A DNA stretch of 43,569 bases from NCBI GenBank assembly GCA_026419455.1, contig JANZZJ010000255.1, positions 1 to 43,569 of the forward strand, read 5' to 3'. Made by a program: the position numbers and the translations under genes. The notes beneath the pieces were generated by a model that was not told the DNA's origin, made no database searches, and was given only the letters and a program-made list of their open reading frames with translations. How positions within the stretch are numbered: the stretch's first letter is position 1; every line of letters starts with the position of its first letter. Of this stretch, positions 7,882-27,504 are shown one piece after another. This stretch comes from Candidatus Sumerlaeaceae bacterium. GTDB taxonomy: Bacteria > Sumerlaeota > Sumerlaeia > Sumerlaeales > Sumerlaeaceae.

Positions 7882-8359
7882 GTCGCACGCCCTGGGAAGC
7901 TGAAAATCCCATGCAGTGATTATAAGAAAACTTCCGCCGATCGTCGTAGTGGTGCCAATAGGTCACACAAAGTTATCGCACCGTTCCAAATGTGAACAGT
8001 CTGTACCATGAGATGGTTGGCGACAATGGTCTAGTCCAATCATTTATCCCTCAAAATTAAATAAAATGTTCGATCTCTTCACCGCTAAGTTCTGCCGTAT
8101 GAACGCGTGAGAATAGAAAGAGCCAAGAAACGACTGTCTAGACGAGGCGCGGCACGATAGTAGGAAACAACAGTGGGAAGGGTGGCATATAGTTTGCTTG
8201 AACCGCATTGTGTACGAGGGGGAAATAGTAAGAAGTGCAGATTATGCTTATAGTTAGGTTAGCAAGAGAAAAACGACGGTCGGATACGACCGTTACTCTT
8301 TCTGCGAGATTATAGAGGCAAGAGGCAGAAAGAAAAAAAGATTGAAGGAGGGTGCAGGC

Positions 8360-9232
8360 ATGACTCTTATGAAAGGTAGAAATCGAAATCTAATGGCTAC
8401 GGCAACATTGAAAAGAAAGCGCAGACATAGGGAAACCGATAAGAATAGTAAGGCTCCCAAAAAGAGGGATGAAGTGAAAGCCAAAGAGTTGCAGCCGGAG
8501 GCTACTGGGGAGCCGATCAGCGAGGAGCTTCTTGATCCTCACGACGAGGAGACACTAGATGTCCCCTATCCCAAGGACCTCGTTGAGAATATGAACGTCC
8601 TTGAGCAAGAGGGTGTGCGTCGCGGGGATCTGGACGAGATCTTGGGGCCAGAACGGTTCCTTACGCCAGAGGAAGAGCGAGAAGTCATTCGCCGCGTTCA
8701 GGAGGGCGATCGCAAGGCGTTTGAGGAGCTCGTCAACGCGTACAAGCGTAAGGCATACTATGTGGCTATCGGGTTCGTCAACAACCACGAAGACGCCCTC
8801 GACCTTTCGCAGGATGCTTTCGTAAAGGCGTTTAAGGCGATCAAGACTTTTGATCTCAATTCGCCCTTTTTTCCGTGGTTTTACAAGATCATCAAGAATC
8901 ACTGCCTGAACTACATCAAGAAAAGCGCTCGCGTCCGAAATGACTCCTTAGAGGAGTTAGAGGAAGAACAGTACATGCAGTTCCACGAGGAAAGACCTGA
9001 TCCCCGGGAACAGTTTGTTCAGTCCCAAGAACGCGAATTGTTGTGGGAGGCAATCCAACGGCTGAAACCGGATTTCAGAGAGATTATCATCATGAAACAT
9101 TTTCACAGCCTTTCTTACAAAGAGATTGCTTCTGCGCTGGACATTCCAATCGGCACGGTGATGAGCCGACTTTTCAACGCGCGGCAGGAGCTGCGGGTGA
9201 AGTACCTCGAAGTCTTAGGGGAAAAGAATTAG
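8360..9232 (+). CDS. ECF-type sigma-70 family RNA polymerase sigma factor with a roughly 100-aa charged N-terminal extension
   Basis: AAGGAGG at 8345-8351 lies 8 nt before ATG 8360. Region 2 reads EVIRRVQEGDRKAFEELVNAYKRKAYYVAIGFVNNHEDALDLSQDAFVKAFKAIKTFDLNSPFFPWFYKIIKNHCLNYIKK. Region 4 reads LKPDFREIIIMKHFHSLSYKEIASALDIPIGTVMSRLFNARQEL. Confidence 0.85.
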   Translation: MTLMKGRNRNLMATATLKRKRRHRETDKNSKAPKKRDEVKAKELQPEATGEPISEELLDPHDEETLDVPYPKDLVENMNVLEQEGVRRGDLDEILGPERFLTPEEEREVIRRVQEGDRKAFEELVNAYKRKAYYVAIGFVNNHEDALDLSQDAFVKAFKAIKTFDLNSPFFPWFYKIIKNHCLNYIKKSARVRNDSLEELEEEQYMQFHEERPDPREQFVQSQERELLWEAIQRLKPDFREIIIMKHFHSLSYKEIASALDIPIGTVMSRLFNARQELRVKYLEVLGEKN

Positions 9233-20327: not shown

Positions 20328-22709
20328 TTATGAAGCTGTAGTTGGTGCGTTGGACGGCGAGTGATCCTCGGTGTTACCATTTCTAGTCGCAAATTGAAGC
20401 TCGTAATAGCGGGCATAGCGACCCCCGCGCTGGAGTAATTCATGGTGGGTTCCGCGCTCAACTATTCTGCCAGCATCAAGTACAATAATCTCGTCGCAAT
20501 GCAGGATCGTCGCGAGGCGATGAGCAACTACAAAGACTGTACGTTGTTTCATTATCCTGTGGAGCGATTGCTGGATGAGGGCTTCCGTTTCGGCGTCAAG
20601 CTGGCTTGTCGCCTCGTCAAGGATTAAGATGGGAGCGTTCTTGAGGAACGCACGTGCAATGGAGATGCGCTGACGCTCGCCGCCGGACAACCTTACTCCA
20701 CGCCCCCCAATGAGGGTCTCATAACCTTTAGGCAGACGCATAATAAAATCGTGGGCATTCGCAGCTTTCGCGGCCTCGATGATGCGCTCCAGGGGGGTGT
20801 CGTCGGGCATGCCATAGGCGATGTTGCGTGCAACGGTGTCGTCGAAAAGCACGACGTCTTGCGAAATAAGCGCAATATGATCGCGCAAGGATCGCAAACG
20901 CACGGTACGAATGTCCACGTCGTCGAAAAGGACGCGTCCCTGGGTAGGATCGAAAAACCGAGGGAGGAGACTGATAAGGGTGGTTTTACCCGATCCTGTT
21001 TCGCCGACAATGGCAATAGCTCTTTTTGCTGCGACGGTGAAGTCTATATCGCGTAGGACAAAATCAGTCTCATCATTATAACGGAACCACACGCGCTCGA
21101 AGCGGATTTCGCGACTGAGCGGGGGTAGCTGGGGCGCCAAAGGATCGTCCACAATTGTAGGTTTAGTGTCCAAAACGCGAAACACGCGGTCACTCCCCGC
21201 CATGCCCCGCTGAATTTTCGAAATGACGCGACTGCTGCCCTTGAGAGGCCGAAAAATCTGGGAAAGGAAAACAACAAAAAGCACAAATTCCGACCCACTG
21301 AGCTCTCGGGTTTGGAGAACATAATAACCGCCGAGAAGAATCATGACCGCAACTGTAAGCACGCCCAGAAATGCCGTGAGACCTGTGCCAAGCTCCTCTG
21401 CCACAACGGTTTTAAGAGATCGGCGAAAGGCTGTCCAGCTTTCCCGTTCGTAATGGTCAGCTTGTGCTTCCTCCATGTTGAAAGCTTTAACGACCCTAAT
21501 GCCAGAGAAGGACTCCTGTGCAATCGAAGACAGTACGGCGCGAAGCTCTTGGATCCGTTGGCTAATTTTCCGGACTCTACGGCCAATGCCGTATAGGAGC
21601 AATCCAATGAGCGGCGCCACCGTAAGACTATAGAGCGTGAGTTTTGGAGAAACGAAGAACATGGCCCCGATCAGCATGGAGACGGTAATCGGGGTTTTCA
21701 GGACGTTAGAAAAAAGAATGTCGATTGAGCCAGAGACAGCGGCAACATCTTGCGTCACCACTGACATGAGGTTTCCAATGGAGCGACGATTGTAGAATGC
21801 CATGTCGAGGTGCAGTAGGTGACGCAAAACATGGTTGCGAAGTCGGGTGACGCACAGATTGGCCATGTACGCGCTGAGGTAACCAACACCGAACGACGCA
21901 GTAACCATGCATAACGCGGAAACAACCAAGAGAATGAGGATCCCCCCTAACACGCGAAACTTATTTGTATTGCTGACCATAACGTATTGCTGGAGTTTCT
22001 CGAGGTAGGGAGCGGCAAGCTCGCCGATACGCGCTTTAATATCTCCAACGAAGCTCGACTTTTTGGGCTTGGAAATCTTGGGAAGCGGGACATTTTTCAG
22101 GTCGCGCGCGAGGATCTCTGTTGCCAGTGGATCGCGTGGCCCGATTAGACGAAAGTTGTTGTCGGAACGAAGTTCCTCTGGAGGCGTTACATGCGCCGGT
22201 AATAAGACGACTATTTCCGTGCCACGCAAAGAAACTACTTTAGCGTAGTAGAGTTCCCCCCATATCATGTCCCCAAGAGTTGTCGCGGGGGAAAGGTCAA
22301 TGATGAGGCGACGAGTGGGAGGTTTTCCGACTGCCTCGACAATGTCGCGGAGCTCTTCGGCGGCACGCGCCGGTACAAGATCCCCTATAGCCCGCACGGC
22401 GACACGGTCGCCCTCGAGCTTCACTGGCGCTCCGATTTCAAAAAGGCCTTTCTGACGAATCTTGGAGGAGTCTGTAATGCGGTTCTTCACGAGCAGATCA
22501 AGAGTTGGGCGAACTAGACTGATGGTTACGACCGTAAAGGCGCCCTCAAGAAGCATGCACGTCACGAGCAGGACTACCACATGACGCGTACCTCGCAGAT
22601 ACGTCAGAAGGCGCCGATAGAGAGCGAAGTCCGTGTAATTTCGCTTAACCCTCTTTTTCGCCACTTTCCGCCACCGCTTGTTCGAGTTTCTGCAAGTAAA
22701 TTGCTGCAA
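20328..22709 (-). CDS. MsbA-like ABC exporter (fused TMD-NBD) with a roughly 175-aa insertion between TM1 and TM2
   Basis: In the NBD, Walker A is GETGSGKTT, the signature is LSGGERQR, Walker B is ILILDEATS and the H-loop is VVAHRL. The TMD has six spans, and a hydrophilic block lies between the first two. The start is uncertain: TTG 22709 (ORF track) or GTG 22664. Both overlap the upstream ORF. Confidence 0.85.
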   Translation of the reverse strand: MQQFTCRNSNKRWRKVAKKRVKRNYTDFALYRRLLTYLRGTRHVVVLLVTCMLLEGAFTVVTISLVRPTLDLLVKNRITDSSKIRQKGLFEIGAPVKLEGDRVAVRAIGDLVPARAAEELRDIVEAVGKPPTRRLIIDLSPATTLGDMIWGELYYAKVVSLRGTEIVVLLPAHVTPPEELRSDNNFRLIGPRDPLATEILARDLKNVPLPKISKPKKSSFVGDIKARIGELAAPYLEKLQQYVMVSNTNKFRVLGGILILLVVSALCMVTASFGVGYLSAYMANLCVTRLRNHVLRHLLHLDMAFYNRRSIGNLMSVVTQDVAAVSGSIDILFSNVLKTPITVSMLIGAMFFVSPKLTLYSLTVAPLIGLLLYGIGRRVRKISQRIQELRAVLSSIAQESFSGIRVVKAFNMEEAQADHYERESWTAFRRSLKTVVAEELGTGLTAFLGVLTVAVMILLGGYYVLQTRELSGSEFVLFVVFLSQIFRPLKGSSRVISKIQRGMAGSDRVFRVLDTKPTIVDDPLAPQLPPLSREIRFERVWFRYNDETDFVLRDIDFTVAAKRAIAIVGETGSGKTTLISLLPRFFDPTQGRVLFDDVDIRTVRLRSLRDHIALISQDVVLFDDTVARNIAYGMPDDTPLERIIEAAKAANAHDFIMRLPKGYETLIGGRGVRLSGGERQRISIARAFLKNAPILILDEATSQLDAETEALIQQSLHRIMKQRTVFVVAHRLATILHCDEIIVLDAGRIVERGTHHELLQRGGRYARYYELQFATRNGNTEDHSPSNAPTTAS

Positions 22710-23578: not shown

Positions 23579-23986
23579 ATGCAGGGTACGGTGAAGGCGG
23601 GAATCAGCTTCTCGCGGAAGATTTTCGCGCTTGTAGTTGCTCATCGTGCCGACGCGGTCACAGATTCCGGGGAAACAGGTGGTATCCCTGAGGTCCAGTA
23701 CGTGAAAGCAGGGGGGCCTGAGGAAGCCTTGCAGCTGCTTAGAGATCAGACGGTAGACGTCGTCCTTGTTGATGGAGATGAGCAAGACTGGGAGTTCGAA
23801 AATGTGGTCAGTAAAGTAACGTCGGCCCGTAAGGACGTAATCTGTGCAGTGGTGACGGAGGCGGGAAATGATGAGATGTGGATAAGGGCTCTCAATGCTG
23901 GCGCCTGCGACCTTCTTGAAAAACGCGGACTAAATTACGCCTTATGCCAACTGATGCGGCGCCAAGGGCGCCGCATTGCGGCATAG
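23579..23986 (+). CDS. Stand-alone CheY-like receiver domain lacking the N-terminal acidic pair
   Basis: GGGAGG at 23565-23570 lies 8 nt before the ATG. By eye the protein aligns to CheY as follows. ALVVAHRAD replaces the DD pair. VVLVDGD retains the phospho-acceptor-like Asp. AVVTE matches the Thr position. ACDLLEKR matches the Lys position. Confidence 0.5.
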   Translation: MQGTVKAGISFSRKIFALVVAHRADAVTDSGETGGIPEVQYVKAGGPEEALQLLRDQTVDVVLVDGDEQDWEFENVVSKVTSARKDVICAVVTEAGNDEMWIRALNAGACDLLEKRGLNYALCQLMRRQGRRIAA

Positions 23987-24088
23987 CATTTCGAGGTTTT
24001 CGTAAAAAATCCTTGCATCCCTGCCTGCGCGCTGGGCGTGTAGTATGGTACAATGTAGAAGTACGACTCTGAGAAGGAGGCATGAGCG

Positions 24089-25144
24089 TTGTCGATCCAG
24101 GCAGGCGGTGGTGTGCGCAGGAAGAAACTTTTGCTGTTGGACACAGGCGACAATTGCCGTTGCCCAATGGCAGAAGGTTACCTTAAGAAGCTGCTCTTTG
24201 AACGGGGGATTGATTGGATTGACGTTTCGACAGCTGGCGTAATGACGCCTACGGGACTCCTTCCTACCCCTGAGGCAGAACAATTGCTCAAAGAAGAGGG
24301 GGTGGACATTAGCCGGCATCGTTCCCGCCCCATGAAAGCCCATATGCTTGAGGAAGCGGATTTGGTGTTGGGTATGTCTTCGCTCCACGTTCAGAAGGCA
24401 ATCCGCGAAACAGAGGCAGCCAAGGGAAAAACCTTTCTCCTTAGAGAATATGTTGGCTACCACGGGAAGCAAGTGCAAATCCCGGATCCCATGGGCGGAA
24501 CGATGGACGCCTTCAAAAGGGTATTCGACCAACTGAAAGATGCGTTGGAGAAACTTGTGGAGACGGATTTCATCCGCATCCCCCCGCCGGGATGGAAATC
24601 GGCCTCGCCAGGCCCCGAAGAAATCGAACTGCAGGAAGAAGAATCACCTCTGGCGGCCGAAGTTGAGGCGGGAAAGGCAGAAGCATTGATGCCAGCTGTC
24701 AGCGACGATGCGAAGTTGCCCCCAGCAGGCCAGGAAGAGCCAGCCGTGGGGAGACGCAAGCGTGGCCGCCCGAGAAAAGTGGATACTGGCGTAGCGATAG
24801 AGGCGCCTGCTCCGCGCAAGAGGGGCAGACCCCGAAAAGCAACCTCGGCGGAGGCATCCCCGCCGAGTCAACTTGAGAAAAAGCGCCGCGGCCGTCCTCC
24901 CAAAAGTGAAACTGACAAAAAGGCGAAGGAAAAATCCGCACGTAGAAAAGTGCAGAAGAAAAGTGCCCAACCCGAGAGAAAGACTGCCGAAGCACAAAAG
25001 AAGAAGCCTACGACCAGCGCGAAAACTCAAAAGCCACCTCAAAAGGCATCAGCTCGTCGGCTGGAAAGTAAGTCCGTGGTGGCGAAAACCAAAGGAGCGC
25101 AGAGTCGCCGAGATCGGCGGCAGGCGCAATCGCGAAAAAAATAG
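24089..25144 (+). CDS. YwlE/LMW-PTP-like domain (P-loop Cys replaced by Asp) fused to three AT-hooks and a Lys-rich tail
   Basis: AAGGAGG at 24074-24080 lies 8 nt before TTG 24089. The N-terminal domain reads KKLLLLDTGDNCRCPMAEGYL ... ADLVLGM ... FLLREYVGYHGKQVQIPDPMGGTMDAFKRVFDQL, which parallels B. subtilis YwlE (FVCTGNTCRSPMAE ... FTLKEYV...DVLDPFGG). The C-terminal half contains RRKRGRPRK, RKRGRPRK and KKRRGRPPK, followed by a K/Q/A/S-rich tail. Confidence 0.7.
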   Translation: MSIQAGGGVRRKKLLLLDTGDNCRCPMAEGYLKKLLFERGIDWIDVSTAGVMTPTGLLPTPEAEQLLKEEGVDISRHRSRPMKAHMLEEADLVLGMSSLHVQKAIRETEAAKGKTFLLREYVGYHGKQVQIPDPMGGTMDAFKRVFDQLKDALEKLVETDFIRIPPPGWKSASPGPEEIELQEEESPLAAEVEAGKAEALMPAVSDDAKLPPAGQEEPAVGRRKRGRPRKVDTGVAIEAPAPRKRGRPRKATSAEASPPSQLEKKRRGRPPKSETDKKAKEKSARRKVQKKSAQPERKTAEAQKKKPTTSAKTQKPPQKASARRLESKSVVAKTKGAQSRRDRRQAQSRKK

Positions 25145-25188: not shown

Positions 25189-27120
25189 ATGGCTCGTGAT
25201 TACAAGTGTCTCCGTGCAGTGGTTTGGCCTGAGTTTGCTGGGCGATTTGGTATTGCTTTGCTTTGCAGCGCTTTGGCCGCGCCGATCGAGGCAGCTCCTG
25301 CGGCGAAAAGCAGCGCCAGCAGCGAACCGGCAAAAATATCCAAGGGAGTCGCGCAAACTACCGCGACAGTCCAACAAACCAAAAAGAACACCAATCGCAG
25401 GTTTGAGAAACTGGCTCGGTACGATTTGGGGTCGAAGGGTCATTTTCTCCTCGCAGTGGTAAAAGGCAAAGAACTGCGTGAGGACGGCTTCTCAACCTAC
25501 ACGGCCTTGGTTGATTACCTTGAGGGAGGTGGCGGAAGCGAGAAACGTCAAACAGAGCTCCTACAAGATTGGGTGATGCAATACGTCGTTGCTGATGTTC
25601 TCCCCGAAGTGGCAAAAGCTGCGACGAAGACGGACGTGCCACTGCCATATACGACACTCTACGAAGTCAACGTTCTCAAAAGGGCTTTGCGCGAAAAGCT
25701 TGAGTCGGAAACATCCCCCACGCGCGAGCAACTTGAAGCATGGACAAAAGAAAATGCGCAACGTTTTACTCGTCCGGAGGAAGTTCACGCGTATCATATC
25801 TTCATGCAAGTATCGGATGATGTTCCCACAAGCCGGGCTGAGGCCGTGCGCAAACGAATGGAAGAGGTGAAACGTTTGGCGGACGAAGGAACGTCGTTTG
25901 CACAACTTGCGCGCCGCTATTCCGAAGCTGCCAGCAGTCGTGTTGGTGGGGACATCGGCTGGGTGTCGAGGCGGATGCCTATTGGTCCGGAGAGCAAACC
26001 CATGAATCTTGCCCTTGAAAACGCCCTTTTCGGATTACAGCGCGGGGAAGTTTCGGACATTATTCAGACCAGTCATGGTCTGCACCTAATGTACTGCGCC
26101 GATCGCGTGACCACGTACGTCCCGACGACCGATGAGCTTATAACAAGTCGCATTCTTCCACGCTCAGCTCAAGTACAACTGGTGAGGGAAAAGTGGCTTA
26201 ACGGCATCAAGGCTACCCGGGAAAAGTTAGGGGCTCAAGTTCTCTTCGATGTGGAAAAAGGAGATGGTATTTCAACGGACGTCCCCGTCGTAAAGATTAA
26301 CAATCATACGTGGAGTTTGCGTCAGCTCGAGGAACTTTATGGCACTCGTTTCACGCAAGCTTTCCGTATGCGAGCCCAAACGACGCAGACACTAGCAAGC
26401 TTCCTTGATGAAGTGGTCAGTGAACTGGCAGGCATATACTGGGCGCTCGATGAAAAAGTGGACCAGCAACCGCTTGTCCAGCGGGATCTCGAGTGGGCGG
26501 GCGGTCGCGCCCGACTGAGAAAGATACTCACAACGTACGTGGCGGAAAAATATCCGGTAACAGAGGACACTCTCAAAAAGGTTTATGAAGAACGCAAGAA
26601 CCTAATGCGCTTGCCTGAGGGACGAGGGTACATTCTCAGCGTTAAGGCTGAGCCAACTACTGTGGGAATGTCGCGTGATGAAGCACGCGCCGCCGCCAAG
26701 AAAAAGGCCGAAGAAATTCGGAAGAAAATCCTCGAGGGAGCCGATATTGAACAGTTGGCGCGCGAAGTATCGCAAGACAACCGAGCATCATCTGGTGGTC
26801 TTGTTGAAAGGTCAGTCTTAGCTCATCTTAACGATCCGGCGGGGCGAATGTTCGGCGCTGTTGCTAGCTGGCTGAAGGCAGGGGAAGTCAGTGACGTGCG
26901 GCAATTCGGCGACACGTTTGTTGTGGTGAAGCTCGTGGAACGCTGGGAAGGTGAAGCGCCGCCCTTCGACCAGGTCCGTGGCCGTTTGGAAGCAACTGTA
27001 CGCCAAGAAAACGAGCAAGCTGCCCGGCGCGAAATTCTTACTAAAGCTGTGGAGAAAGACCTGGTGTTGTGGGCCAACCCGGCTGCTCAGTTTGGCATTA
27101 ACCCGGACGCTGGTTTTTAA
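25189..27120 (+). CDS. Periplasmic SurA/PpiD-like chaperone with two parvulin (PpiC) PPIase domains
   Basis: A signal-like N-terminus is present (GIALLCSALAAPIEAAPA). Parvulin 1 reads VHAYHIFMQV...GGDIGWVSRR...GEVSDIIQTSHGLHLMYC. Parvulin 2 reads GYILSVKA...SSGGLVERSVL...GEVSDVRQFGDTFVVVKLVE. Confidence 0.8.
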   Translation: MARDYKCLRAVVWPEFAGRFGIALLCSALAAPIEAAPAAKSSASSEPAKISKGVAQTTATVQQTKKNTNRRFEKLARYDLGSKGHFLLAVVKGKELREDGFSTYTALVDYLEGGGGSEKRQTELLQDWVMQYVVADVLPEVAKAATKTDVPLPYTTLYEVNVLKRALREKLESETSPTREQLEAWTKENAQRFTRPEEVHAYHIFMQVSDDVPTSRAEAVRKRMEEVKRLADEGTSFAQLARRYSEAASSRVGGDIGWVSRRMPIGPESKPMNLALENALFGLQRGEVSDIIQTSHGLHLMYCADRVTTYVPTTDELITSRILPRSAQVQLVREKWLNGIKATREKLGAQVLFDVEKGDGISTDVPVVKINNHTWSLRQLEELYGTRFTQAFRMRAQTTQTLASFLDEVVSELAGIYWALDEKVDQQPLVQRDLEWAGGRARLRKILTTYVAEKYPVTEDTLKKVYEERKNLMRLPEGRGYILSVKAEPTTVGMSRDEARAAAKKKAEEIRKKILEGADIEQLAREVSQDNRASSGGLVERSVLAHLNDPAGRMFGAVASWLKAGEVSDVRQFGDTFVVVKLVERWEGEAPPFDQVRGRLEATVRQENEQAARREILTKAVEKDLVLWANPAAQFGINPDAGF

Positions 27121-27155: not shown

Positions 27156-27191
27156 GGGCGGAAAGTACTCGCTTTCCGCCCTTCGTTTTTT
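27156..27191 (+). terminator. Rho-independent terminator downstream of the PPIase gene
   Basis: GGGCGGAAAG-tactcg-CTTTCCGCCC forms a perfect 10-bp stem with a 6-nt loop, immediately followed by TTCGTTTTTT. Confidence 0.85.
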
Positions 27192-27414: not shown

Positions 27415-27504
27415 TGGCGGTGGGAGTAGGATTCGAACCTACGAGGAGCTTGCGCCCCTGGCGGTTTTCAAGACCGCTGCCTTAAACCACTCGGCCATCC
27501 CACC
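27415..27504 (-). tRNA. tRNA-Ser (anticodon UGA), 90 nt with a long variable arm and encoded CCA
   Basis: The reverse complement folds by hand as follows. Acceptor GGTGGGA/TCCCACC. D-arm GCC-GAGTGGTTTAA-GGC. Anticodon stem GCGGT/ACCGC with loop CT-TGA-AA. An 18-nt variable arm. T-arm GTAGG-TTCGAAT-CCTAC. Discriminator G, then CCA. Confidence 0.93.

Follow-up and report, generated by a model that had tools for sequence, protein, structure and literature searches.

In the window, by which we mean the whole stretch of 43,569 nucleotides that was analysed, we identified a gene for a 351-aa protein in which a YwlE-like phosphatase domain without its nucleophilic Cys is joined to AT-hooks. The first-pass annotation had made the same observation, and it is confirmed here. 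The explanation that we prefer, and believe about as much as we doubt, is a DNA-anchored module that binds a phosphorylated ligand as a natural "trap" or acts as a very slow phosphatase. Such a protein would be cytoplasmic and built of two halves, a YwlE-type N-terminal half and a disordered C-terminal half that anchors it to DNA. The phosphate cradle, made up of the P-loop backbone, Arg24 and the general-acid loop with Asp133-Pro, is kept, and the thiolate nucleophile is permanently swapped for Asp18, with co-changes that turn Asn into Asp21, Thr into Asn22 and Ser into Cys25. Since no cysteinyl-phosphate intermediate is then possible, the domain most likely docks and holds a phosphorylated ligand or turns it over very slowly. 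By ancestry this ligand would be protein phospho-arginine (or phospho-tyrosine), and the domain would serve as a natural substrate trap or reader that is insensitive to oxidation. The three AT-hooks and the polycationic tail most likely anchor the domain on DNA via the minor groove and the backbone.

Architecture of the 351-aa protein

The gene has the following features, of which the Shine-Dalgarno sequence was read directly from the DNA.

24072..24079, + strand: Shine-Dalgarno sequence GAAGGAGG, 9 nt 5' of the TTG start
24089..25144, + strand: coding sequence, 351 aa, with a Cys-less YwlE-like LMW-phosphatase domain, an acidic linker, three AT-hooks and a basic tail
24119..24598, + strand: folded LMWPc domain, aa 11-170 (AlphaFold pLDDT 94-98; Foldseek; Pfam)
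24140..24163, + strand: P-loop D18-T-G-D-N-C-R-C25, replacing C-T-G-N-T-C-R-S (alignments)
24479..24499, + strand: general-acid loop I-P-D133-P-M-G-G, aa 131-137 (alignments)
24599..24751, + strand: acidic disordered linker, aa 171-221 (pLDDT about 50-64)
24752..24778, + strand: AT-hook 1, RRKRGRPRK (sequence, Pfam)
24815..24838, + strand: AT-hook 2, RKRGRPRK (sequence, Pfam)
24878..24904, + strand: AT-hook 3, KKRRGRPPK (sequence; best Pfam stretch, aa 264-275)
24920..25141, + strand: basic low-complexity tail, aa 278-351 (disordered in the AlphaFold model)

The annotated ORF is present in the window sequence, and an in-frame TGA immediately precedes its TTG start. Orthologs are 58-77% identical to the protein, and the GAAGGAGG-TTG arrangement recurs at one of their loci (L005). 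No signal peptide or transmembrane segment was found in the 351 residues.

The N-terminal likeness to YwlE and other LMW-PTPs holds in both profile and structure. A Pfam search gave LMWPc (PF01451) 92.5 bits over aa 19-156 (cut-off 23.2, E=3.7e-26), and Foldseek placed the AlphaFold domain on YwlE (4kk4/4etn) and on 4egs with TM 0.89-0.91 and rmsd 1.2-1.5 A. The predicted structure has four strands in an alpha/beta fold, in which the P-loop connects beta1 to alpha1, and LMW-PTP and ArsC proteins account for all of the best 50 structural matches listed. By sequence, the best matches in the PDB were 4egs and YwlE (4kk4, 1zgg, 4kk3), with E 6e-23 to 6e-20. YwlE (B. subtilis/Geobacillus; PDB 4kk3, 4kk4, 4pic) and T. 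tengcongensis 4egs are 32-34% identical to the window protein and have in common with it the fold, the P-loop Arg, the second P-loop Cys and the DP general-acid loop. The window protein differs from them in the exchange of the nucleophile Cys for Asp, in the replacement of the Asn, Thr and Ser of C-T-G-N-T-C-R-S by Asp, Asn and Cys, and in an extra 180 aa comprising the acidic linker, the AT-hooks and the basic tail.

From nt 24140 the P-loop codons read GAC ACA GGC GAC AAT TGC CGT TGC. In the PDB alignments with 4egs and YwlE, 'LLLLDTGDNCRCPMAEG' lies opposite 'FVCTGNTCRSPMAE', with D18 in the nucleophile Cys column, C23 on the conserved second Cys, R24 on the P-loop Arg and C25 in the Ser column. 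The claims that Asp occupies the catalytic Cys position and that Cys follows the Arg in place of Ser thus both stand: D18 falls on the nucleophile Cys whether the alignment is by sequence, profile or structure, and neither a profile nor a structure alignment puts a Cys there. A register shift with C23 as the nucleophile is rejected, as C23 aligns with the second Cys that is invariant in canonical enzymes, and C25 as an obligatory nucleophile is rejected because it varies among the relatives with Asp at this column, hereafter D-type (C26 S3 G2 A1). The protein therefore lacks the nucleophilic Cys that opens C-X5-R-(S/T) in the LMW-PTP cysteine-phosphatase class and has the P-loop Arg and the DP general-acid Asp of that class, R24 and D133-P134 being invariant in relatives. 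The general-acid motif IPDPMGG is retained, as first annotated. The sequences for the large comparison of nucleophile types were picked by a DPxG regular expression, so that the DP-loop invariance seen there is partly built in; D133, P134 and G136 likewise show no variation in alignments A1, A2 and A3, for which no such filter was used.

The C-terminal half is ordered by charge, with an acidic stretch of -10 (aa 171-222, pI 4.05), hooks of +13 and a basic end of +23. Taken as a whole this tail accounts for half of the protein, with a net charge of +26. The AT_hook family (PF02178) scored 23.4 bits in the Pfam search (cut-off 17.4) over three stretches, and the protein has the multiple basic-flanked R-G-R-P cores in a disordered region (pLDDT about 50) that are expected of AT-hook proteins. 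All three cores that had been annotated are present, with the second hook shifted by one base from 24814-24837 to 24815-24838. When the stop-to-stop ORFs of 100 aa or more in the six frames of the window are taken together, they contain four [RK]GRP motifs. Three of these fall in this one protein, so chance is inadequate as an explanation. The final segment, aa 278-351, contains K18 A11 R10 S8 Q8 with no aromatic residues (net +23, pI 11.9). This segment, described as H1-like in the first-pass annotation, is K/R/Q/S-rich, unlike a classic A/K/P H1 tail, and no H1 or HC2 match was found by Pfam in the window protein or in 29 other aligned sequences. Chlamydial Hc1/Hc2 and other bacterial H1-like proteins have lysine/alanine-rich polycationic disorder in common with it, but differ from it in that the window tail has no HC2/H1 match, is K/R/Q/S-rich and is joined to an enzyme fold.

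A clade of tailed phosphatase-like proteins in Sumerlaeota

The window protein is not an isolated oddity, as the first reading might have implied, but part of a Sumerlaeota-wide "tailed" clade in which most members keep the Cys and the others have S, A or D in its place. This clade is monophyletic (99.6% NJ bootstrap), its named members all belong to Candidatus Sumerlaeota and all of its members carry K/R-rich tails. Among 154 tailed sequences with the position intact, the nucleophile column contains C93, D32, S25 and A4. Only the tailed clade has lost the Cys: 61 of the 154 lack it, compared with 0 of 142 untailed relatives (position intact in all counted), and the 93 tailed members with Cys still have the full catalytic set. 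T19, G20, C23 and R24 are invariant across the C, D, S and A types (93, 32, 25 and 4 sequences). The tailed clade shows stronger conservation of the pocket loops AGVMT..GL..T.E, HRS, GMTPFHVQ and DPMGxT than the 142 untailed relatives do, regardless of the residue in the nucleophile column. The Ala type has the same pocket, though Ala cannot be a covalent nucleophile. Thus, the clade provides a natural series of Cys-to-Asp, Ser and Ala changes on one conserved scaffold, and a system in which to study what the pocket does without its nucleophile. A contig search with the clade alignment gave, among the matches listed, a best identity of 39% and no Sumerlaeota locus; these matches were mostly canonical LMW-PTPs.

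The Asp itself is strictly kept. All 32 D-type proteins recovered have Asp18, T19, G20, C23 and R24, while D21 occurs in 31 and C25 in 26. Of the 32 D-type sequences, 26 have a Cys at P-loop position 8, which none of the 122 of C, S or A type has, and the canonical untailed set has the P-loop Asn in 142 of 142 and the Ser in 141 of 142. A change from TGY to GAY takes two substitutions, both GAC and GAT are used for Asp18, and the adjacent codons vary synonymously. The domain has a dN/dS of 0.10 against the nearest ortholog. A sequencing error or sporadic mutation would not explain this conservation, a codon change of two nucleotides or the occurrence of GAC as well as GAT, and is rejected. The protein therefore has the trait of pseudophosphatases such as STYX and the RPTP D2 domains, namely a substituted nucleophile that is conserved in orthologs, with S or A in related lineages. 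Two D subclades exist, DTGDNCRC and DTGDICRC, and bootstrap support for the monophyly of all D-type sequences is 13% after removal of the P-loop columns. The two subclades may be independent in origin, and if so their shared P-loop motif is convergent.

Possible functions of the altered pocket

Several known phosphatases bear on the preferred reading as a trap. The D2 domain of Drosophila PTP99A has a natural Cys-to-Asp change, and PTP1B C215D was described as 'capable of substrate binding, but deficient in catalysis' (PMC3172300). As in the window domain, the CX5R Cys of both is Asp and the Arg is kept; they differ in having the classical PTP fold instead of the LMW-PTP fold, in being eukaryotic receptor or cytosolic proteins, and in having no DNA-binding tail. 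In YwlE, the title of PDB entry 4kk4 reports phospho-serine trapped by the C7S mutant. Two Drosophila LMW-PTPs that had been called pseudophosphatases from sequence proved to be active (PMC7772506), but these keep the Cys, unlike the D-type. The retained general-acid Asp133 counts against a pure reader, which would not need it, and the strict invariance of Asp18 agrees with either a chemical or a structural role.

The identity of the ligand also bears on this reading. In YwlE and DARP, Thr at P-loop position 5 favours phospho-arginine (PMC7772506). The window protein has Asn22 at this position, which is N in 26 and I in 6 of the D-type sequences and Thr in all but one of the 122 C-, S- or A-type tailed relatives. 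With N/I22 in place of the phospho-arginine-favouring Thr, the D-type ligand may no longer be phospho-arginine.

A possible explanation, although one that we would not favour, is that the protein still works as a phosphatase, by altered chemistry. In this case Asp18 would be either a nucleophile that forms an acyl-phosphate, as in HAD phosphatases and receiver domains, or a water activator; Arg24 and Asp133 would have their usual roles, Asp21 might bind a metal, and the enzyme would act on DNA-bound proteins and be insensitive to redox conditions. This would agree with the strict joint invariance of D18, R24 and D133, with the co-adapted D21, N/I22 and C25 that are specific to the D-type, and with the possible independence of the two D subclades. 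It would also agree with weak PTS_IIB matches that a Pfam scan gave in relatives, since the fold serves as a phospho-carrier too. The phosphoramidate of phospho-arginine is a high-energy donor, which makes transfer to a carboxylate plausible. Against altered chemistry, the engineered Cys-to-Asp form of PTP1B was catalysis-deficient (PMC3172300), and sister lineages have Ser or Ala in place of Cys with the same pocket, which suggests that the conserved function of the clade does not need a covalent nucleophile. The motif I of HAD enzymes is DxDxT and the receiver set is DD...D...T...K; the D-T-G-D spacing does not match DxDxT, and signature residues of HAD or receiver proteins were not found in the protein. 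With this motif and an LMW-PTP fold, membership in the HAD or receiver families of aspartyl-phosphate enzymes is rejected.

It is improbable, in our estimate, that the D-type domain is a phosphatase or phospho-acceptor that forms an oxidation-proof aspartyl-phosphate on a set of D18, D21 and C25 with R24 and D133, and thereby makes a DNA-tethered, receiver-like switch of the tail. Within Sumerlaeota the set may have had two origins. The phosphoryl group would come from phospho-arginine or another P-N donor, and a switch tethered to DNA beside the acidic linker could modulate the grip of the polycationic tail on the chromosome.

We likewise think it unlikely that the pocket is dead to phosphate, with the LMW-PTP fold serving as a scaffold, a protein-protein surface or a binder of cations or other ligands in an architectural nucleoid protein whose function lies in the tail. 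Two acidic side chains in the P-loop (D18, D21) could disfavour phosphate binding unless bridged by a metal, the supporting Asn and Ser that are nearly universal in the canonical set are lost, and the tail accounts for so much of the protein and of its charge. However, Arg24 and the DP loop are invariant, the loops that line the pocket are unusually conserved in C, S, A and D types alike, and the domain dN/dS is about 0.1. Were the domain no more than a scaffold, it would be expected to tolerate drift at D18, R24 and D133. A four-ligand metal site of D18, D21, C23 and C25 is not favoured either, as D21 and C25 are not invariant.

In the literature searched, which covered bacterial LMW-PTP pseudophosphatases, LMWPc combined with AT-hooks or H1, and Sumerlaeota genomics, we found nothing relevant: neither a description of a Cys-less, DNA-tethered version of the YwlE/LMW-PTP family nor a validated LMW-PTP pseudophosphatase. 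This is consistent with the earlier remark that no bacterial protein with this combination had been described. Hundreds of homologs are present in databases, unstudied and entered as 'hypothetical protein' or '(arginine) phosphatase'. Protein arginine phosphorylation is studied mainly in Firmicutes, and to our knowledge its only known reader is the ClpC N-domain. A YwlE-like trap that is tethered to DNA and conserved in an uncultivated phylum could add another kind of reader, and might be of use as an enrichment reagent. The fusion suggests phospho-signalling directly on the nucleoid in Sumerlaeota. The phospho-Arg or phospho-Tyr reader role, the nucleoid association and the altered chemistry put forward in the first-pass annotation are proposals of this kind.

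The tail and the gene neighbourhood

Every relative has a basic tail. AT-hooks occur in several as the minority form, most relatives having generic K/A/P tails without them, and the two forms alternate; the closest orthologs of the window protein have 2-3 AT-hooks. Two other members of the tailed clade have precomputed Pfam HC2 (PF07382) matches. The title of a 2009 paper by Garcia-Heras, cited in PMC4374960, speaks of HMGA/H1 equivalence, to which the interchange of hooks with K/A/P tails among the relatives is a parallel. The closest architectural likeness is Myxococcus xanthus CarD, where a folded N-domain precedes a disordered 'acidic segment followed by RGRP repeats' that form its AT-hooks, and among CarD orthologs AT-hook tails alternate with lysine-rich (H1-like) tails, as they do here (PMC4374960). 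The N-domains are unrelated, being an RNAP-binding, Tudor-like CarD_CdnL_TRCF domain in CarD and an LMW-PTP fold here; CarD also belongs to a different phylum and requires a partner, CarG. By analogy with CarD, an HMGA-like or H1-like tail would bring a protein-binding domain to DNA. This would extend the CarD paradigm to an unrelated domain, with the fold of a signalling enzyme fused phylum-wide to HMGA-like/H1-like tails.

The gene that follows encodes a peptidyl-prolyl isomerase (PPIase), and the + strand continues as follows.

25189..27120, + strand: double-parvulin PPIase gene, 643 aa, hydrophobic N-terminus (Pfam Rotamase twice)
27156..27190, + strand: terminator-like hairpin and T-run after the PPIase gene

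No terminator-like site was found on the + strand between the two genes, which are probably co-transcribed. A PPIase gene (599-649 aa) also lies 3' of the D-type gene in L001, L002, L005/L006, L088 and L091, with gaps of 1-63 nt. The upstream receiver-like gene was rejected as a conserved partner: its synteny is limited to the closest genomes (L005, L091; 33-45% identity), and L001, L002 and L088 lack it. Envelope genes are found nearby: the window contains GT9 and an MsbA-like ABC transporter, and L003 contains LptF/G.

The basal relatives resemble YwlE in lying upstream of rpiB and glyA, in contrast to the window lineage, where the gene has come to lie beside a PPIase gene. The basal D-type protein P0091 and the C-type P0023 are both encoded upstream of rpiB and SHMT, and the position next to rpiB and glyA was found in L087 (basal D-type) and L003 (C-type), whereas in the window the PPIase gene is downstream. 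Descent of the domain from a phosphatase gene beside rpiB and glyA is the best explanation.

RNA and polyphosphate are further possible ligands of basic disordered tails. It is very unlikely, in our view, that the tail is no DNA tether at all and instead binds RNA or ribosomes, polyphosphate or anionic membranes, or forms condensates, the protein working with the exported PPIase in envelope biogenesis. The conserved pairing with the parvulin PPIase gene, the nearby envelope genes and the prevalence of hookless K/A/P tails among relatives would fit such a role, but the three canonical basic-flanked RGRP hooks score above the Pfam threshold and recur in the closest orthologs, and the basal members adjoin rpiB and glyA and not a PPIase gene. 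As the 351-aa protein has no export signal or membrane segment and the PPIase has a hydrophobic N-terminus, the two products probably reside in different compartments.

An LMW-PTP fold with Asp in the nucleophile column

The ORF at 24089..25144 (+), judged real on reading of the sequence, encodes a protein of 351 aa. Its TTG start lies 9 nt downstream of GAAGGAGG and immediately 3' of an in-frame stop, and the same SD-TTG layout was found at the ortholog locus L005. Leu is the first residue in several database orthologs, indicating that alternative start codons are used. The coordinates given to the features of this protein by a first-pass annotation are correct, apart from the second AT-hook, which lies at 24815-24838 and not at 24814-24837.

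The protein matches Pfam LMWPc (PF01451) over aa 19-156 with 92.5 bits (cut-off 23.2). The best phmmer matches among PDB sequences were the T. tengcongensis LMW-PTP 4egs (E=6e-23) and B. subtilis YwlE (E about 3e-20), and these alignments set L-L-L-L-D-T-G-D-N-C-R-C-P-M-A-E over F-V-C-T-G-N-T-C-R-S-P-M-A-E. Asp18 therefore occupies the nucleophile column, as the first-pass annotation had proposed, and a register shift with a Cys as the true nucleophile was rejected, since Cys23 falls on the conserved second P-loop Cys. Arg24 corresponds to the phosphate-binding Arg, Cys25 stands in place of Ser, and the general-acid loop reads IPDPMGG (aa 131-137). An AlphaFold2 model, built on an input alignment of 30 sequences, has pLDDT values of 94-98 over aa 11-170, dropping to about 50 over aa 171-351. 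Foldseek against the PDB ranked YwlE (4kk4, 4etn, 4kk3, 4pic) and 4egs first, with target-normalised TM scores of 0.85-0.91 and rmsd of 1.2-1.5 A. The N-terminal half thus adopts the canonical LMW-PTP fold, with disorder predicted for the C-terminal half. By profile, fold, Arg and DP loop the protein belongs to the LMWPc fold family. The Cys nucleophile that defines the cysteine-phosphatase class and the position-5 Thr of YwlE-type arginine phosphatases are absent from it, and the rpiB-glyA position of the latter is absent in its lineage.

Nucleophile types within the tailed clade

A first homology search found 25 close relatives with 48-68% identity, all with lysine-rich tails. The check on orthologues was run on these sequences, and every relative covering the N-terminus keeps DTGDNCRC, apart from the rare variants DTGDNCRG and DTGGNCRC. 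The set then grew through an exhaustive search of representatives and through a profile search, and residues in the nucleophile column were counted from an alignment of all retrieved domains. Among 170 proteins with K/R-rich C-terminal tails, the column holds Cys in 93, Asp in 32, Ser in 25 and Ala in four (C-, D-, S- and A-type), the other 16 being N-terminally truncated gene calls. Among 157 untailed relatives it holds Cys in 142 and Asp in two, with 13 truncated; the two Asp-bearing entries are tail-less as retrieved and are apparently D-type entries cut short.

The tailed proteins group together in a single clade (bootstrap 498/500; all trees were NJ only). Its organism-named members, a handful, are all Candidatus Sumerlaeota (Sumerlaeaceae, Sumerlaeales, Sumerlaeia, Sumerlaeota), and one more, from a soil metagenome, is labelled by the locus tag 'BH09SUM1' alone. 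On this basis the window, too, probably stems from this phylum. Of 154 tailed proteins, 93 keep C-T-G-N-T-C-R-S, the full signature of arginine phosphatases, including the position-5 Thr that favours phospho-arginine in YwlE and DARP (PMC7772506), and NCBI names some of them 'low molecular weight protein arginine phosphatase'. Ser and Ala forms lie interspersed among the Cys forms, which indicates several independent losses of Cys. The D-type comprises a core group (DTGDNCRC and a few DTGDICRS), to which the window protein belongs, and a separate DTGDICRC subclade with 100% bootstrap. Monophyly of all D-type proteins has 66% bootstrap and 13% after removal of the eight P-loop columns, when the DTGDICRC group clusters with C/S forms in 63% of replicates; the D-type may thus have had one origin or two.

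A sporadic substitution was rejected, as the Asp is conserved in D-type relatives, its codon is GAC at most loci and GAT in locus L002, with synonymous variation in adjacent codons, and a change from Cys (TGY) to Asp (GAY) requires two substitutions. The domain has a dN/dS of 0.10 against the nearest ortholog, L091 (77% identity), with dS near saturation. T19, G20, C23 and R24 are invariant across every nucleophile type, and D133, P134 and G136 are invariant in alignments made without selection on that motif. Specific to the D-type are Asp at P-loop position 4 (31/32), Asn or Ile at position 5, Cys at position 8 (26/32 versus 0/122 of the C, S and A types), Pro54 and Gly137. The pocket-lining loops (AGVMT..GL..T.E, HRS, GMTPFHVQ, DPMGxT) show stronger conservation throughout the tailed clade than among canonical family members, whatever the nucleophile residue.

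An extra Cys just after the general-acid loop (DPMG-C-T, window residue 137, Gly in the D-type) occurs in 50/93 C-type and 20/25 S-type proteins. It may serve as a redox partner or provide another thiol close to the active site.

The charged tail and the genomic neighbourhood

The region beyond aa 170 has no aromatic residues and is made up of three segments:
aa 171-222: acidic linker, net charge -10
aa 223-277: AT-hook segment, net charge +13
aa 278-351: basic tail, net charge +23 (K18 A11 R10 S8 Q8)

The three AT-hooks of the first-pass annotation were recovered by Pfam (PF02178, 23.4 bits, cut-off 17.4, three stretches). Its H1-like tail stands as a compositional description only, because Pfam put no H1 or HC2 label on this tail and precomputed HC2 matches were found in just two tailed-clade members. 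Tails across the clade are about 40-380 aa long, and K plus R make up a fraction of 0.17-0.49. The window protein has R/K-G-R-P cores, and so do 6/31 other D-type proteins and two N-truncated D-type entries, compared with 1/25 S-type and 0/93 C-type (Fisher's exact test p=0.001, without correction for phylogeny). In P0085, P0086 and P0087, the closest orthologs, 2-3 AT-hooks follow an acidic stretch. This architecture resembles that of Myxococcus CarD, whose HMGA-like DNA-binding domain is a disordered C-terminal 'acidic segment followed by RGRP repeats' (PMC4374960). The title of Garcia-Heras 2009 (reference 5 of PMC4374960) gives HMGA-like and histone H1-like domains as functional equivalents in CarD, and the alternation of AT-hook tails and lysine-rich tails among the orthologs here mirrors this equivalence.

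A second DNA-related protein of the window with a charged disordered extension is a sigma-70 family protein (regions 2 and 4; 8342..9232, +), whose N-terminal extension of ~100 aa starts out strongly basic (KRKRRHRETDKNSKAPKKRDEVKAKE) and turns acidic further on.

A gene for a 643-aa double-parvulin PPIase with a hydrophobic N-terminus begins 44 nt downstream of the window gene, and no terminator-like site was found between the two on the + strand. Sites flanking this pair are:
27156-27190: strong hairpin and T-run, after the PPIase gene
23579..23986 (+): atypical single-domain receiver-like gene, upstream (Pfam 27.1 bits, under the 30.2 cut-off)

The pair recurs with gaps of 1-63 nt at L001, L002, L005/L006, L088 and L091, and synteny with the window exceeds 15 kb in L005 and L091. 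A DTGDICRC representative (L087) and a Cys-type tailed one (L003/L004) lie directly upstream of rpiB and SHMT, which matches the B. subtilis order ywlE-ywlF(rpiB)-glyA; fusions of RpiB or SHMT with LMWPc among some homologs are consistent with this linkage. By these positions, the D-type protein descends from the ywlE-position gene and was relocated later; judged from the loci, it is no accessory paralog.

The receiver-like gene has the acceptor Asp (VLVD). It was not counted in the feature: it is sub-threshold, lacks the N-terminal acidic DD pair and keeps its place upstream of the D-type gene in the closest genomes alone (L005, L091; 33-45% identity). The Ala-type gene of locus L089 is preceded by a 480-aa receiver protein. 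Other genes in the window include:
27415..27504 (-): tRNA-Ser(TGA), between the PPIase operon terminator and a P5C reductase gene
20328..22709 (-): MsbA-like ABC exporter (ABC_membrane and ABC_tran) with a ~230-aa N-terminal extension without a Pfam match, adjoining a GT9 heptosyltransferase gene, an arrangement kept in L005 and L091
11964..16391 (-): type II/IV secretion-like cluster with a T2SSE ATPase gene and two genes of the T2SSF family, one of which has an unusual length (699 aa) and a T2SSF domain confined to its C-terminus

Possible roles of the Asp pocket

With its thiolate gone, the D-type cannot use the canonical cysteinyl-phosphate mechanism. Beyond fold, column assignment, conservation, clade structure and synteny, which are observed, we infer a mechanism for the window protein. 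The reading ranked first, to which we give an even chance, is that it would be a DNA-anchored module that binds a phospho-ligand, trapping or reading it, or at best a very slow, oxidation-insensitive phosphatase. Arg24, the DP loop and the adjoining loops are strongly constrained in the C, S, A and D forms alike, and the A-type keeps the pocket although Ala is not a possible nucleophile; both favour retained, non-covalent use of the pocket. So do the precedents: PTP99A D2 carries a natural Cys-to-Asp change and the PTP1B C215D mutant is described as binding substrate yet deficient in catalysis (PMC3172300), and a YwlE C7S mutant trapped a phospho-enzyme, according to the title of PDB 4kk4. The window protein is alike in active-site logic to RPTP-D2 and STYX-type pseudophosphatases. 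Sequence-based 'pseudophosphatase' calls on Drosophila LMW-PTPs were overturned by biochemistry (PMC7772506), which counsels caution, though those proteins retained the Cys.

The main rival, an active enzyme based on Asp, is possible and rather unlikely. It is supported by D18 and D133, which never vary, and by the D-type-specific co-changes, and should the two D subclades have separate origins, their shared D..D..C set would be a convergence, arguing for a new active site; non-covalent use is what the A-type pocket favours. Improbable is a pocket that no longer binds phosphate, given its constraint in all four forms, and a tail that does not target DNA, set against the three AT-hooks, seems very improbable.

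Our literature searches turned up neither a bacterial LMW-PTP pseudophosphatase nor a protein in which an LMWPc domain is joined to an AT-hook or H1 tail, in agreement with the first-pass annotation, which knew of no described bacterial case of its combination, and the main Sumerlaeota genomics paper makes no mention of a protein of this type. Outside the window, two giant homologs, P0094 (1679 aa) and P0159 (2197 aa), join a PEP-utilising/PPDK-like part, as judged from sequence, to 2-6 tandem LMWPc-like repeats. Their P-loops are partly degenerate (VCAGNACRS, ACSFNTSRS, VGAGYTDRS, ACTHNTSRS, VCAANHSRS) and ENP replaces the DP general-acid motif, making them another apparent case of Cys-less LMW-PTP domains.
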